Source: Candidatus Thorarchaeota archaeon (GTDB lineage Archaea; Asgardarchaeota; Thorarchaeia; Thorarchaeales; Thorarchaeaceae). From it: a DNA stretch of 64,000 bases. The notes beneath the pieces are model-generated. The model was given only the letters and a program-made list of their open reading frames with translations, did no database searches and was not told where the DNA came from. The stretch is from positions 32,001-96,000 of the forward strand of contig DXJO01000020.1 of the NCBI GenBank assembly GCA_019057475.1, read 5' to 3'. The translations under genes and the position numbers were made by a program. Below, piece after piece: positions 41,205-51,448 of this stretch; position 1 is the stretch's first letter; every line of letters starts with the position of its first letter.

Positions 41205-41271
41205 GGGGCGGTAGTCTAGCCCGGCTATGATGTCTCGCTTACACCGAGAAGATCGCTGGTTCAAATCCGGC
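41205..41271 (+). pseudogene. 3'-truncated tRNA-Val(TAC)
   Basis: 60 nt identical to the next tRNA but different 5' acceptor strand (GGGGCGG) and no 3' strand or CCA. Confidence 0.85.
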
Positions 41272-41333
41272 ATTATGAGTATGCGAAATCTCACACAACG
41301 CTTTTAATCGGTCGTCAAACAAATTGTCGTCTA

Positions 41334-41411
41334 GGGCCGCTAGTCTAGCCCGGCTATGATGTCTCGCTTACACCGAGAAGATCGCTGGTTCAAATCCGGC
41401 GCGGCCCACCA
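41334..41411 (+). tRNA. tRNA-Val(TAC)
   Basis: GGGCCGC/GCGGCCC acceptor, TCTCG-CTTACAC-CGAGA, TTCAAAT, CCA. Confidence 0.95.
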
Positions 41412-41719
41412 TCTGATTTCTTCTCTGGATATATGGCAACAACGACTCTTTTCCTTTTCGTCTTCTCCTAACCAGCAGGTCCGCATAATTATCTCTGTTT
41501 TCCTATAACCATATCAAATGTTCATCTAATAAATATACGAGTCTTACATAACTTCTAGATGCATTCCAGCTAAATTAGACATATATTTGAAATATTAGCT
41601 TAATAACTTTATAACTCAATGTAGGGATTACTGTACGAGTTCATAACCAATTCTGATGACGGAAGTAGGAGTGAGCTCAACTGACCGAACAGGTCAGAAC
41701 TTTATATCTCGAAGGCGAC

Positions 41720-43405
41720 GTGACGATGGTTCATTCCAAGGGTGTGACAATCGCAGTTAAGGTTCCCATTAAGTGGGAATCAATGACCAAGAGAACTAAG
41801 CAGAGGCTTAGACAAATCGTCGGGCGTGACACCCGAGTCATTCGTGCCTTTCTTGGAGTAATTGAACAGCACGAAAATGAATTGTTGATGGGTCGCAGAT
41901 TGGAACGGATTAACGAAAGCAAACTGGATACACTCACGATAACTGCTGTCAAGGTCAAGCCGGGCTATAGTCAACGACTAAGTGTGCCTCATGACTTCAA
42001 GAAGCGCTTTCCAAGGATATCACACAATGAAATCCAGGAATGCAGACAGACCGCGGTGGCGCTTTATGAGAGCTACCTCGGGTTGAGGAGCAAGAGAGGA
42101 CGAAAGGCTTCAAAACCGTGCGCGGTCAACTCGACGAGGAGAATTCCACGCTGGGCTTTCTCTCAGAGATTCAAACTCTTTGAGAAGACAAATGCAACCT
42201 CTCGCTGGTGGCTCAATCTGCGGGATTCCTTTGACTCAATTCCTGAGGGCCGAAGAATTCATGATCGATTGACCGTTCCCCTGAGAATCTCGCCCTTTCA
42301 TCTGAACCAGTTCAAAAGGGGTGAAGTCAAGGCTCTACAGATATTCACTGATGACTCCAAAAAGTGGTGGGTGACCTTTGCTATACGTGTAGATACACCT
42401 GAACATCCTGACGAGTTTCTCCCACGTGCTGTTCTCGGCATCGATTTAGGAATTAAGAAGGCTGCATGTACTACGCTGGTAACTCCCACAAAGGTCAGAG
42501 AAACCCGCTACTTCAAGCAGAAGGATAAACAGGGTGTACTGCAAAAACTTGACCAGAGAATTTCTGACCTTCAGAGCAAGGCAGACACCCGATTCAATAG
42601 AGGTCAGAGCGCCGACATGGTGTTGGTGAAGACACGCGCACTCAAGCATAAACGAGAGAATGTTTCCAGAGAGTACGACCGCATACTCGTGAATCAGCTC
42701 ATGGAATACATCATTGGGCTGTCCAAGAAATACACTCTCTACATAGCCCTAGGTAGATTGAAGGGAATTCGTGGTGGTGCACGTCGAGGCAACTACAAGG
42801 GTCGCAAGTTCCGTGGAATGATTCACAGATGGACCTTTGCTAGAACCACCAACAGCCTCAAGCATCAGCTAGCACAGCTTGGTTGGCAGGTCGAGGGTAA
42901 GAATGCACATTTCAGGATTATTCCAGAGAACTGGACATCCATTATGTGTTGGAAGTGTGGTCGAAAGGGCAACCGTCCAAAGCAGAACCTGTTTGTGTGT
43001 TCGACCTGCGGCAACAAGTGCAATGCTGACAAGAATGGCTCCATTAACATCGCTGGACGACTAATTACGATCACAGAGTCACTTCATTCTGTGAGAGGAC
43101 TAGGTTTCTGGACATGTGCAATTGAAAGAGCACAAAGTTCGGGGCCGAAAGCCCGAAGGAAGACATGTTCTTCTCGAGGGAAGTCCTTACCCCCCAAAAG
43201 AGACAATGCATCTGGTCCAGGGGGGTCCGCGGCTGTTCACCAAGTTCAATCGGACCTTCTCAGCTTCGGCGACGAAACTGGGATGGGTGATAATGACCCC
43301 GCCGTGGAAAACACTGTGGTAAGACTCTCTGCTGCTGGAAGTGATGCTCCGGCAATAGGACAGGAGAAAGAAGCCAGGTCTGTGGGAGGGATTTCATTCC
43401 GATGA
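41720..43405 (+). CDS. tnpB: TnpB-family RNA-guided nuclease with rearranged RuvC and long C-terminal tail
   Basis: GIDLG (RuvC-I), IALG, IPENWTS, CWKC..CSTC Zn finger, NADKNGSINI (RuvC-III); no tnpA nearby. Confidence 0.88.
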   Translation: MTMVHSKGVTIAVKVPIKWESMTKRTKQRLRQIVGRDTRVIRAFLGVIEQHENELLMGRRLERINESKLDTLTITAVKVKPGYSQRLSVPHDFKKRFPRISHNEIQECRQTAVALYESYLGLRSKRGRKASKPCAVNSTRRIPRWAFSQRFKLFEKTNATSRWWLNLRDSFDSIPEGRRIHDRLTVPLRISPFHLNQFKRGEVKALQIFTDDSKKWWVTFAIRVDTPEHPDEFLPRAVLGIDLGIKKAACTTLVTPTKVRETRYFKQKDKQGVLQKLDQRISDLQSKADTRFNRGQSADMVLVKTRALKHKRENVSREYDRILVNQLMEYIIGLSKKYTLYIALGRLKGIRGGARRGNYKGRKFRGMIHRWTFARTTNSLKHQLAQLGWQVEGKNAHFRIIPENWTSIMCWKCGRKGNRPKQNLFVCSTCGNKCNADKNGSINIAGRLITITESLHSVRGLGFWTCAIERAQSSGPKARRKTCSSRGKSLPPKRDNASGPGGSAAVHQVQSDLLSFGDETGMGDNDPAVENTVVRLSAAGSDAPAIGQEKEARSVGGISFR

Positions 43406-43595
43406 AGGCAGACGAAGCTCCGACTAGGCCTTGGGTAGCGCCAAGGCTTGATGGCGACATCGAGTCGGGGAAGGGTGGAACACAGGAGTTTCCGAGGGTT
43501 GAGCTCACTCAACCTATGGGAACGGGTCAGCCGGCCCGCCCTATCATTTTCAGTCACTGCGATATGGGCGGCAGGTTTAGCTGATTGGGTTATGA
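43405..43595 (+). ncRNA. Putative omegaRNA-like structured RNA
   Basis: CTCCGACT/AGTCGGGG enclosing GCCTTGG/CCAAGGC and GATG-GCGA-CATC hairpins; TCAGC..CCGCCC/GGGCGG..GCTGA hairpin. Confidence 0.6.
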
Positions 43596-43787
43596 GTTGA
43601 TTGGAACCACCAAATTAGACCGATTCGTGAAGACATTCGCGGACTCAAGATACTTTGGTTGTCGAGAAGAGCATAATCTGTTTCCTTGGAGATAACAGTG
43701 CATCTGTCATTAATCACCAAAGCATTGAAGAGCCAATTCGCTAGCCCAAAGACTTGCGGTGAGTTCCTGCGGGTTTGACCATAGAAT

Positions 43788-43909
43788 GCGGGAGTAGCCA
43801 AGACTGGTCAAAGGCGGCGGACTTAAGATCGTATGAAGATATGGGGTCATTCGAATAAGATATCCGCTCCCGTAGGGGTCCGTGGGTTCAAGTCCCACCT
43901 CCCGCACCA
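43788..43909 (+). tRNA. tRNA-Leu(TAA) with intron 43828-43861
   Basis: GCGGGAG/CTCCCGC, GCGGA-CTTAAG|A-TCCGC, long variable arm, CCA. Confidence 0.92.
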
Positions 43910-47325: not shown

Positions 47326-47468
47326 GCCGCGGTGGCCTAGCCTGGTTAGGGCGCGAGACTCATAATCTTGCTGGATCTTTCCGGTCAAAATCATGGGGTC
47401 ATTGTCTCAAGCCTGGCCCGAGATGAGAAATCTCGAAGTCGAGGGCTCGAATCCCTCCCGCGGCACCA
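47326..47468 (+). tRNA. tRNA-Met(CAT), elongator-type, with intron 47365-47429
   Basis: GCCGCGG/CCGCGGC, CGAGA-CTCATA|A-TCTCG, CCA. Confidence 0.9.
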
Positions 47469-50425: not shown

Positions 50426-51448
50426 TTGCAATCGGATTCATACTACGAATTCACTCAAGCTATCGTGAACCTATTTATAGGCCTCTCCGATGCGCTCATA
50501 CCCCTTGGAATACCATTTGGCCCGATTGCCTGGTTCGTTATCGTTGTTACTGTACCCATGGCCATAGTCATAGCGTTTCTGCTGTATCGCATCAAGGGCT
50601 CTGCTGGCGGCTTGCCTGATGGTGTACGTAGAATCATTGCGTCAACTGGCGATGTTTCCTCGGGCATTGCAGGTACGAAAAAGGTACGGTTCATCAAAAC
50701 CCCCGGAGAAGCGTTGGTATTCCTCAAAGTGGAAGAGAATGCTGTTCAACAAGCTTTGGCTGCAGTTGATTACTACACTAAAGAAGGCGAGATAGACAGC
50801 TCGCTTCAAGACAAGCTTGTTTCACTCTATCAAGGCAGGCTCACTGCTGTACAGGCTGCAATTGCTAAAGACGAGGAACTGAAGGCTGTTGTGGATGCAG
50901 ACTCCGCGATGGATCGAGCACGATCTGATTACCTTCGGAAACTTGCAGCGATGTCTGGTACCACTGTAGAAGCAGACACTATTGAGTCAGGGCCGCCCAG
51001 CGTTGGGGCGCCAAGCGCAGCTGCGGTTACACCAAGTGATGCGGCAGCTCCTTCAGCCGGTCCCCCAAGTGGCGGCGCTCCGAGTGGTGGTGGACCTCCC
51101 AGCGGTGGTACACCTAGTGGTGGCGGTCCTCCAAGTGGCGGCGCTCCGAGTGGTGGTGGACCTCCAGGCGGTGGTGCACCTAGTGGTGAATCTCCAAGTG
51201 GCGCCACCCCGAGCGCTGGTACACCTAGTGGTGGTGGACCTCCAGGCGGTGGTGCACCTAGTAGTGGTCCTCCAGGCGGCGCACCTAGTAGCGGTGTTCC
51301 AAGCGGTCCTCCAGGTGGCGGAATCCCGAGTGGTCCTCCAGGTGGCACGTTAGGCGAGAAACCTTCTGGTGCACCTGGTAAAAGCTCTCTCCAGTCTGAG
51401 ATGCTCGCAGAAATGGAACGCTTGCGAACCCTGATGAGTGGGGATTAG
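50426..51448 (+). CDS. Membrane protein with helical domain, Gly/Pro/Ser repeats and C-terminal amphipathic helix
   Basis: N-terminal TM; SGGGPPSGGAP repeats. Confidence 0.75.
   Translation: MQSDSYYEFTQAIVNLFIGLSDALIPLGIPFGPIAWFVIVVTVPMAIVIAFLLYRIKGSAGGLPDGVRRIIASTGDVSSGIAGTKKVRFIKTPGEALVFLKVEENAVQQALAAVDYYTKEGEIDSSLQDKLVSLYQGRLTAVQAAIAKDEELKAVVDADSAMDRARSDYLRKLAAMSGTTVEADTIESGPPSVGAPSAAAVTPSDAAAPSAGPPSGGAPSGGGPPSGGTPSGGGPPSGGAPSGGGPPGGGAPSGESPSGATPSAGTPSGGGPPGGGAPSSGPPGGAPSSGVPSGPPGGGIPSGPPGGTLGEKPSGAPGKSSLQSEMLAEMERLRTLMSGD
50990..51375 (+). repeat. Imperfect coding tandem repeat (~33 bp unit, PSGGGPPSGGA)
   Basis: Recurrent cctagtggtggtggacctcc / ccaagtggcggcgctccgag. Confidence 0.85.

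Follow-up and report, generated by a model that had tools for sequence, protein, structure and literature searches.

A RuvC-II-rearranged TnpB with an unusually long putative omegaRNA in an element disrupting tRNA-Val in a Thorarchaeota archaeon

The stretch analysed here, 64,000 nt of contig DXJO01000020.1 from a Candidatus Thorarchaeota assembly (GCA_019057475.1, hereafter the window), carries a tnpB gene whose product, as judged from its sequence, is a member of the already described TnpB class in which the canonical RuvC-II Glu has been lost and another one is found just upstream of the zinc finger. Gene and surroundings are probably explained together by a tnpB-only element coding for a catalytically competent nuclease of this class and for a long omegaRNA, with both guide and insertion site in a tRNA-Val gene. 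The rearrangement highlighted in the original prediction already defines TnpB2 (PMC10530073), RIIr (PMC10691335) and 'pro-Fanzor' proteins (PMC11832414, PMC13565253). The relocated Glu is thus not new, and the present protein adds an Asgard-wide family to a described and active class. The part worth following up is the design of the element, namely the disruption of tRNA-Val together with a spare tRNA gene, the long putative omegaRNA and the tnpB-less satellites.

The TnpB protein and its predicted active site

The gene and its key residues are listed below (coordinates refer to the 64,000-nt window, residue numbers to P0001).

41720..43405, + strand: tnpB open reading frame (ORF), 561 aa from GTG (Pfam, NCBIfam, AlphaFold2 model, Foldseek)
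42443..42445, + strand: codon of RuvC-I Asp242 (GIDLG), invariant in alignment A2, in strand 236-243 of the model
42752..42754, + strand: codon of Gly345, found where RuvC-II canonically has Glu (IALGRL; aligned with the Glu of Cas12f 'iqmEDL'), at least 90% Gly in the family
42926..42928, + strand: codon of the predicted alternative catalytic Glu403 (IPENWTS), at least 90% conserved
42947..43009, + strand: CxxC...CxxC zinc finger (C410, C413, C427, C430), within the Pfam TNB domain 386-444
43028..43030, + strand: codon of RuvC-III Asp437 (NADKN, an NADXN form), invariant in A2

Conservation was assessed in A2, an alignment of 62 family members with identities down to 20-22%. D242 and D437 were invariant and G345 and E403 at least 90% conserved; among the zinc-finger residues, C410, C413 and C427 were invariant and C430 was at least 90% conserved. 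Gly345 was assigned to the canonical RuvC-II Glu site because 'yialGrL' fell under 'iqmEDL' in phmmer alignments with solved Cas12f chains. Glu403 is located 58 residues after G345 and six before C410. Both residues occurred as a pair in about 58 of 60 representatives (at least 360 aa, identity down to ~22%), and the canonical Glu was encountered in only two relatives, P0249 and P0271, where position 403 is Ala or Pro. Such complementarity would be expected if a catalytic residue had been relocated. The original description of a TnpB with intact GIDLG and NAD aspartates, a lost RuvC-II Glu and a Glu ahead of TS-CxxC was therefore borne out, all motifs being present and conserved in A2. The same holds for the suggested check on homologues, where the replacement Glu was at least 90% conserved and exclusive with the canonical one.

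Both hallmarks of the published class were found, i.e. replacement of the canonical Glu by an inert residue (Gly or Pro, here Gly345) and an alternative Glu some 45-58 residues downstream, six before the zinc finger (PMC13565253, PMC10530073). Glu loss combined with such a replacement was reported for Fanzor1/2, prokaryotic TnpB2, pro-Fanzor and RIIr-1 to RIIr-7 (PMC13565253), 'pro-Fanzor' being a label given to rearranged TnpBs (PMC11832414, PMC13565253). On the TnpB tree of Altae-Tran et al. (2023, PMC10691335), rearranged proteins are distributed over two major clades and eight large branches. The largest rearranged branch displays a Glu to Gly change, several branches are almost exclusively archaeal, and the NADXN motif marks a 'derived' TnpB clade (PMC10691335). 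Experimental data exist for some members of the class: ApmFNuc E467A is dead (Jiang et al. 2023, PMC10530073), the ApmFanzor2 triad was seen by cryo-EM (PMC11832414), and the archaeal TvTnpB, of the rearranged type, cuts DNA with an NTGAC transposon-associated motif (TAM) and without collateral activity (PMC10530073).

The catalytic triad of the window protein is predicted to consist of Asp242, Glu403 and Asp437. The spacing between E403 and D437 (34 residues) is the same as that between E467 and D501 in ApmFanzor2 (PMC11832414). An AlphaFold2 model computed from A2 displayed a mean predicted local distance difference test (pLDDT) score of 82, above 90 in the core. D242 was located in strand 236-243, G345 in strand 339-346 and E403 directly after strand 398-402, which neighbours the strand of G345, while helix 436-451 began at D437. 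The strand order suggested by the model is RNase H-like, with the Glu shifted from strand four to strand five as in rearranged TnpBs (PMC10691335). Topology, spacing and published analogues would thus place Glu403 in the active site, and the intact D242, E403 and D437 predict a competent nuclease performing RNA-guided, TAM-dependent DNA cleavage. This agrees with the earlier proposal of an active-type nuclease rather than a TldR-like one, since the conserved triad gives the protein a catalytically competent look. Neither sign of a TldR-type change was found: the three residues are conserved with RuvC-III and zinc finger complete, and no neighbour gene was conserved across the loci compared.

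At the level of architecture and fold, the WED, REC, RuvC and zinc-finger regions of TnpB were all recognized. Pfam detected Cas12f1-like_TNB (PF07282) at 1.3e-10, with its TNB domain at 386-444, and OrfB_IS605 weakly; NCBIfam detected guided_TnpB at 2e-20 (under the curated cut-off) and, less strongly, IS607 and IS200 TnpB models. A Foldseek search against the PDB retrieved AsCas12f, OsCas12f, ISFba1 TnpB and ISDra2 TnpB at E values of 1e-16 to 1e-9, with a template modelling score by target reaching 0.71. ApmFanzor2 (9B0L) ranked only 28th in this list, behind Cas12f and TnpB. Likewise, a family hidden Markov model (HMM) searched against the PDB matched AsCas12f (2e-38), a TnpB (3e-36) and other Cas12f/TnpB chains, spanning 1e-38 to 1e-11, whereas Fanzor chains were absent at E<=1, and the nearest ESM Atlas clusters consisted of TnpBs from archaea and bacteria only. 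A particular proximity to Fanzors was thus not found, since profile and predicted fold both lie nearest to Cas12f and TnpB, and the suggested relevance to Fanzor origins could not be upheld. The archaeal host and the lack of sequence kinship with Fanzor1/2 (family HMM, E<=1) further separate the protein from Fanzors. Signs of a Type V CRISPR effector were not seen either, as no tandem CRISPR array occurred in 30000-55000 and no Cas1 in the source genome. The only tandem array in that interval was a coding one, made of imperfect tandem repeats of 15-66 nt (51058-51307) specifying a Gly/Pro-rich linker.

The family is Asgard-wide, according to the names attached to its sequences. A word-indexed search returned 666 relatives, the best 120 of which were 62-95% identical over their full length, and the named sequences among these 120 were Candidatus Thorarchaeota. 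When 1.8 billion cluster representatives were searched exhaustively with HMMER, 784 relatives were retrieved (E<=0.001), remoter named members being supplied by Promethearchaeia and Heimdallarchaeota. These names confirm the Asgard archaeal host proposed at the outset, and archaeal markers were also recorded in the genome itself (GatD/GatE, TFE, intron tRNAs). Four full-length paralogues are present in the source genome (100, 68, 50 and 47% identity), all of them with the Gly345/Glu403 pattern. The folded core of TnpB covers residues ~5-475. Its ratio of nonsynonymous to synonymous divergence (dN/dS) amounted to 0.14-0.19 in three orthologous copies, with dS of 0.13-0.18, so that the protein core is under purifying selection and has been maintained since insertion. 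The originally announced 561-aa frame from GTG does exist, but the true start is probably ATG 41726, giving 559 aa: it lies in a conserved start context in the upstream regions of ten related loci and the closest database relative, P0002, is 559 aa long.

The 3' RNA unit, element ends and tnpB-less copies

Two further features, one at each side of the coding core, are shared by copies of the element.

41600..41719, + strand: left-end region common to other copies, with a TATA-like box CTTAATAACTTTATAA, a leader and a second box (9-10 independent loci)
43080..43529, + strand: ~450-nt conserved structured RNA unit, putative omegaRNA scaffold (alignment A1, covariation)

The 3' unit covers the last ~108 codons of the ORF as well as 124 nt beyond its stop codon. 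It is taken to be the omegaRNA scaffold, overlapping the ORF end as in other TnpBs and unusually long. Alignment A1 gathered 15 copies, i.e. full elements from several Thorarchaeota genomes and five solo units. RNAalifold proposed 113 pairs for A1, 42 of them with compensatory changes. Paired cells reached 96%, against 42-45% when partners were slid by 1-3 columns, and double-change pairs numbered 42 against 6-12 in these slid controls; none of 500 shuffles matched the observed values. The case for an RNA structure rests on this covariation, since single-sequence folding of 43080-43580 was only modestly better than that of shuffles (z -2.3). No Rfam family matched the unit at gathering score, and among public runs none was listed as holding RNA for 41600-43700. 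A structured 3'-end RNA followed by a copy-specific flank is typical of TnpB elements.

The original prediction had credited the protein with a low-complexity tail of ~110 aa. The frame is indeed open past RuvC-III, yet as a protein feature the tail did not stand. Divergence at the three codon positions among six full-length genes was 0.28/0.20/0.57 in the core and 0.27/0.28/0.32 in the tail, a flat pattern indicating conservation as nucleic acid rather than as protein. Tail residues 478-561 displayed a pLDDT of ~30 in the model. The stop position varies, with 544 aa in L012, 598 aa in the C18 paralogue and 483-492 aa in distant relatives, and distant family members end 27-77 aa past RuvC-III. 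Opposite-strand frames of this GC-rich unit are likewise open. Codon pattern and model thus portray the 110-aa 'tail' as unselected read-through of the guide-RNA gene and not as a protein domain. The unit would then be among the longest TnpB guide-RNA scaffolds, with an overlapping frame that is translated but unselected, which calls for caution when 'long' TnpBs are annotated.

Similarity between copies ended sharply at ...AAGAAAYGGGTYA / GGGTYA (position 43529), after which the flanks differed in every copy. At the sequence level, such a boundary is what one expects where a guide follows a right end. An earlier right boundary at 43511, given by BLAST, was replaced by 43529 on alignment. The left end is composed of a TATA-like box (41600-41616), a variable spacer of ~20 nt and a leader starting at 41633 with two hairpins; the second TATA-like box lies ~24 nt before ATG 41726. 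A perfect 13-nt inverted repeat was found between the leader (41669-41681) and the right end (43498-43510).

The source genome contained four full copies and at least five tnpB-less ones, and many more copies were present in six congeners. Besides the four full copies, six places of the source genome matched only residues ~444-560; they correspond to ~450-nt units resembling 43080-43529, located beside unrelated host genes and without tnpB. Throughout the six congeneric genomes, tnpB-less units with an identical sharp 5' edge were numerous. Several of them have in common a 5' module of ~230 nt, similar at its end to the region of the leader hairpins, for which reason tnpB-less units look like old non-autonomous derivatives. 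Random 5' truncation was considered for the solo units and rejected, as dozens of copies in six genomes share both the 5' edge and a diverged left-end-like module. A tnpB-less element (5' module plus a 455-nt unit; L037, G004:C130) and a full one in the source genome (L002, G000:C42) displayed the same right flank. The left flank of the latter copy had no counterpart in relatives. If they indeed rely on TnpB in trans, these abundant omegaRNA satellites would be a natural case of trans-acting guides.

An unrelated repeat of ~155 nt was also recorded (G000:C34:69145-69299 and more than 35 other places, 90-98% identity). It often occurred at contig ends (C19:9-163, C46:73-227, C54:12837-13001) and is probably the end of another abundant, assembly-breaking insertion sequence.

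Insertion in tRNA-Val and the proposed mechanism

The copy in the window is flanked by the two parts of a tRNA-Val gene and carries another, complete one.

41272..43530, + strand: whole insert of ~2.26 kb, comprising replacement tRNA-Val, left end, tnpB and omegaRNA unit (comparison with empty congeneric loci)
41205..41271, + strand: truncated resident tRNA-Val, from the 5' acceptor GGGGCGG through the T-loop, lacking the 3' acceptor strand (partial Rfam match, direct reading, L034)
41334..41411, + strand: complete intronless tRNA-Val(TAC), preceded by a promoter-like box of its own, with acceptor GGGCCGC/GCGGCCC (ARAGORN, Rfam, comparison with the resident allele)
43530..43552, + strand: predicted guide segment, the displaced 3' end of the resident tRNA-Val (CCGGCCCGCCC, TATCA for CACCA) (congener match, limit of similarity between copies)

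Four congeneric genomes (G001-G004), with flanks 90-96% identical to those of the window, displayed an empty site with an intact, intron-containing tRNA-Val(TAC) and no insert; there, the sequence found from window position ~43701 onward starts ~10-25 nt past the tRNA gene. Two other assemblies also harboured the element (L011 and L034). At L034, the intron-bearing resident tRNA-Val is cut in the T-loop (...GGTTCAAATCCAGC|TTTATGAG...) and a complete intronless tRNA-Val follows, again with a separate promoter-like box and the acceptor GGGCCGC/GCGGCCC. The tRNA-Val remnant CCGGCCCGCCC begins at 43531 in the window, one base past the right end. Its 11-mer is unique in the 3.34-Mb genome, where it occurs at this right end, and it matches the 3' end of the intact tRNA-Val in G001-G003. 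Empty sites, the L034 cut and the unique displaced remnant together delimit the insert as 41272-43530. CCGGC was found at both insert junctions. A local duplication unrelated to the element was rejected as the origin of the partial tRNA-Val on the basis of the empty sites and L034. An integrase-type att duplication was rejected as well, since it is the left copy that is broken, a further whole tRNA gene stands under a promoter of its own and no integrase was found.

The acceptor stem of the replacement tRNA (GGGCCGC/GCGGCCC) is distinct from the resident one (GGGGCGG/CCGCCCC) and differs from the guide stretch at two positions just after CCGGC. Unlike its L034 counterpart, the truncated tRNA-Val of the window is intronless, and over 58 nt it does not differ from the complete copy; this identity and the lost intron make gene conversion between the two copies likely. 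The single chimeric, intron-containing tRNA of L011 is consistent with a deletion between two such copies. Beyond the remnant, the start of 43553-43700 pairs with it (GCCCGCCCTATC / GATATGGGCGGC) in a hairpin kept in L011 by a compensatory change, and this stretch is not repeated elsewhere in the genome.

Targeting of tRNA genes may be habitual in the family, as suggested by three relatives (L016:3322-3396, L020:3307-3381 and L021:2233-2310) in which a tRNA-Gly(TCC) gene on the opposite strand directly adjoins the right end with its CCA terminus. The TnpB proteins of these relatives are 55-63% identical to the window TnpB, and the assemblies concerned belong to other Thorarchaeota or uncultured archaea. 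All three right ends contain GTTCACTCA, a motif reported downstream of aCas1-linked Asgard TnpBs (PMC10691335); the window genome is devoid of Cas1. Two long-intron tRNA genes in the window (43788-43906 and 47326-47465) were found by Rfam and missed by ARAGORN.

We propose that the omegaRNA would be transcribed through the right end into the tRNA-Val remnant, which would act as the guide, since the 2.26-kb insert landed in the T-loop of the resident gene. On the model of ISDra2 and other TnpBs, the complex of TnpB and omegaRNA would recognize a TAM on the T-loop side of unoccupied tRNA-Val genes of the GGGGCGG type and cut them. Repair from an occupied copy would then install or restore the element (homing), and tnpB-less units made of left-end-like and omegaRNA parts might use the same TnpB in trans. 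The intronless replacement tRNA-Val would compensate for the split gene and, with an acceptor differing at two guide positions, might be immune. Nuclease activity, the identity of the guide and its TAM are inferred, as are homing, the immunity proposed for the replacement tRNA and the use of the protein in trans by solo units. The patchy distribution fits spread by homing or recombination better than simple descent: G001, the closest genome by its flanks (96%), is empty while the more distant G006 is occupied. From the natural polymorphism between empty and occupied sites, a specific target can be predicted, namely the 3' part of tRNA-Val, together with a TAM region. A tRNA gene destroyed while a probably guide-resistant spare is carried would, if true, represent a novel strategy for an RNA-guided selfish element, in which a conserved site for homing goes together with compensation of the host. 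The most elaborate form of this proposal, i.e. a TnpB homing to tRNA genes by splitting their T-loop, a compensating tRNA made immune by two seed mismatches, 450-nt omegaRNA satellites working in trans and tRNA targeting as a family habit, is regarded as possible rather than probable.

Several observations do not fit this explanation readily. As already stated in the original prediction, there is no tnpA beside the gene, and no Y1 transposase (PF01797) was detected in the 96%-complete source genome. No transposase was linked to any of the copies fetched or located within the 1.5-kb flanks of 11 related loci, and the association with a Y1 or serine TnpA known from TnpB families was seen in none of them. 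Guide positions 12 and 14 of the remnant do not match the intact tRNA. The ~150 nt at 43553-43700 are absent from empty sites and specific to occupied loci. The insert begins at 41272, which is 360 nt upstream of the left end common to other copies. Finally, the window copy occupies the same locus in three genomes, which leaves its recent mobility without support. The 41272 end resembles the start of the shared left end (TATGAGT) and may be an outer alternative end that captured the tRNA gene. Most natural TnpB loci lack tnpA, and a missing TnpA does not exclude membership among TnpBs. Two IS607-type serine recombinases are encoded in the source genome, unlinked to the element: L022 (G000:C19:34802-35182, - strand) and L023 (G000:C53:742-1275, + strand). 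Each combines a MerR-like helix-turn-helix with a resolvase domain, has no tnpB beside it and is a candidate trans-acting transposase.

The shared locus, the low dN/dS (0.14-0.19) and the absence of a linked transposase could also suggest domestication, as raised in the original prediction. TnpB would then be an immobile nuclease or regulator for which the many stand-alone omegaRNA units, with their differing flanks and hence differing guides, would supply guides in defence or regulation (proto-CRISPR or TldR-type). This is unlikely for a multi-copy family with transposon-like ends. The locus is present or absent among congeners with 90-96% identical flanks, genomes carry four diverged full paralogues, and solo units display left-end-like and right-end sequences. 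Moreover, guides are whatever flanks each copy, no neighbouring host gene is conserved across loci, and the catalytic residues are intact, unlike in TldR. Loss of the canonical Glu might by itself indicate a nuclease-dead, RNA-guided DNA binder, inactivated by G345 and with a non-catalytic Glu403. Such a protein is hardly credible in view of the strict complementarity (Gly with Glu403, or canonical Glu with Ala/Pro), the invariance of D242 and D437 and the position of Glu403 relative to zinc finger and RuvC-III Asp, which is that of the essential Glu of ApmFanzor2 and TvTnpB.

The relocated Glu is common to Fanzor1 and Fanzor2 and the family extends across Asgard phyla, so that the protein might be seen as an Asgard 'pro-Fanzor', ancestral or sister to eukaryotic Fanzors and inherited at eukaryogenesis; a 2026 review leaves a single origin of the rearrangement undetermined (PMC13565253). 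We hold this to be very unlikely, for the profile matched Cas12f/TnpB at 1e-38 to 1e-11 and no Fanzor chain at E<=1, ApmFanzor2 came 28th by fold, and the nearest ESM Atlas clusters held archaeal and bacterial TnpBs only. With its occurrence in two major clades and eight branches (PMC10691335), the rearrangement is not diagnostic. The C-terminal 110 residues, for their part, might be a genuine extension such as a disordered tail serving nucleic-acid binding or localisation: most close relatives keep their frame open as far as a common stop, it is likewise open in five of six solo copies, and the residues are basic at the start. Yet the lack of a third-position excess, a pLDDT of ~30, varying stops (L012 544 aa, C18 598 aa, distant relatives 483-492 aa), open frames on the opposite strand and variation that tracks base pairing make this quite improbable. 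A tnpB-only insertion element with a competent nuclease and a long omegaRNA thus remains our preferred explanation.

Comparison with known systems

The closest published counterparts are TnpB2 and RIIr proteins, especially the Glu-to-Gly RIIr-5 (e.g. TvTnpB of Thermoplasma volcanium). They share with the window element a Gly at the RuvC-II Glu position, an alternative Glu just upstream of the zinc finger, an NADXN RuvC-III motif and an archaeal host, as well as a right-end omegaRNA overlapping the ORF end. Compared with the TvTnpB class, the window protein is longer (~475-aa folded core) and its scaffold much longer (~450 nt). TvTnpB has an IS605 TnpA nearby, contrary to the window tnpB.

Cas12f (AsCas12f 8J12, OsCas12f 9NZQ) and TnpB (ISDra2 8EXA/8H1J, ISFba1 8IAZ) provided the best profile and fold matches. 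Cas12f and canonical TnpB display the same succession of WED, REC, RuvC and zinc-finger domains but keep the canonical RuvC-II Glu where the window protein has Gly345. Furthermore, Cas12f works with a CRISPR array, and none is found near the window tnpB.

Fanzor1 and Fanzor2 (SpuFz1 8GKH; ApmFz2 9B0L) also possess a Glu six residues before the zinc finger; in ApmFz2, the 34-residue distance from this Glu (E467) to the Asp (D501) equals that of the window TnpB. In Fanzors, too, guide RNA and gene overlap at the 3' end, as proposed here. Unlike Fanzors, the window gene is prokaryotic, has neither introns nor a nuclear localisation signal and displays GIDLG as RuvC-I. Fanzors resembled the protein less in fold than Cas12f and TnpB did, and no Fanzor chain was retrieved by profile.

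The tnpB-less copies recall palindrome-associated transposable elements (PATEs) and miniature inverted-repeat transposable elements (MITEs) derived from IS200/IS605, in that they keep left-end-like and complete right-end/omegaRNA parts and outnumber full copies. They differ from these by the nature of the retained part, a 450-nt structured RNA with preserved pairing, and by the solo unit of G004, which occupies the right flank held by a full element in G000.

Finally, the window element can be compared with the tRNA-targeting integrative elements of archaea and bacteria, which likewise insert within a tRNA gene and leave a displaced fragment at the far junction. In contrast to these, it has no integrase and carries a separate whole tRNA gene instead of an att-regenerated one, and its displaced fragment sits at the position of a TnpB guide.

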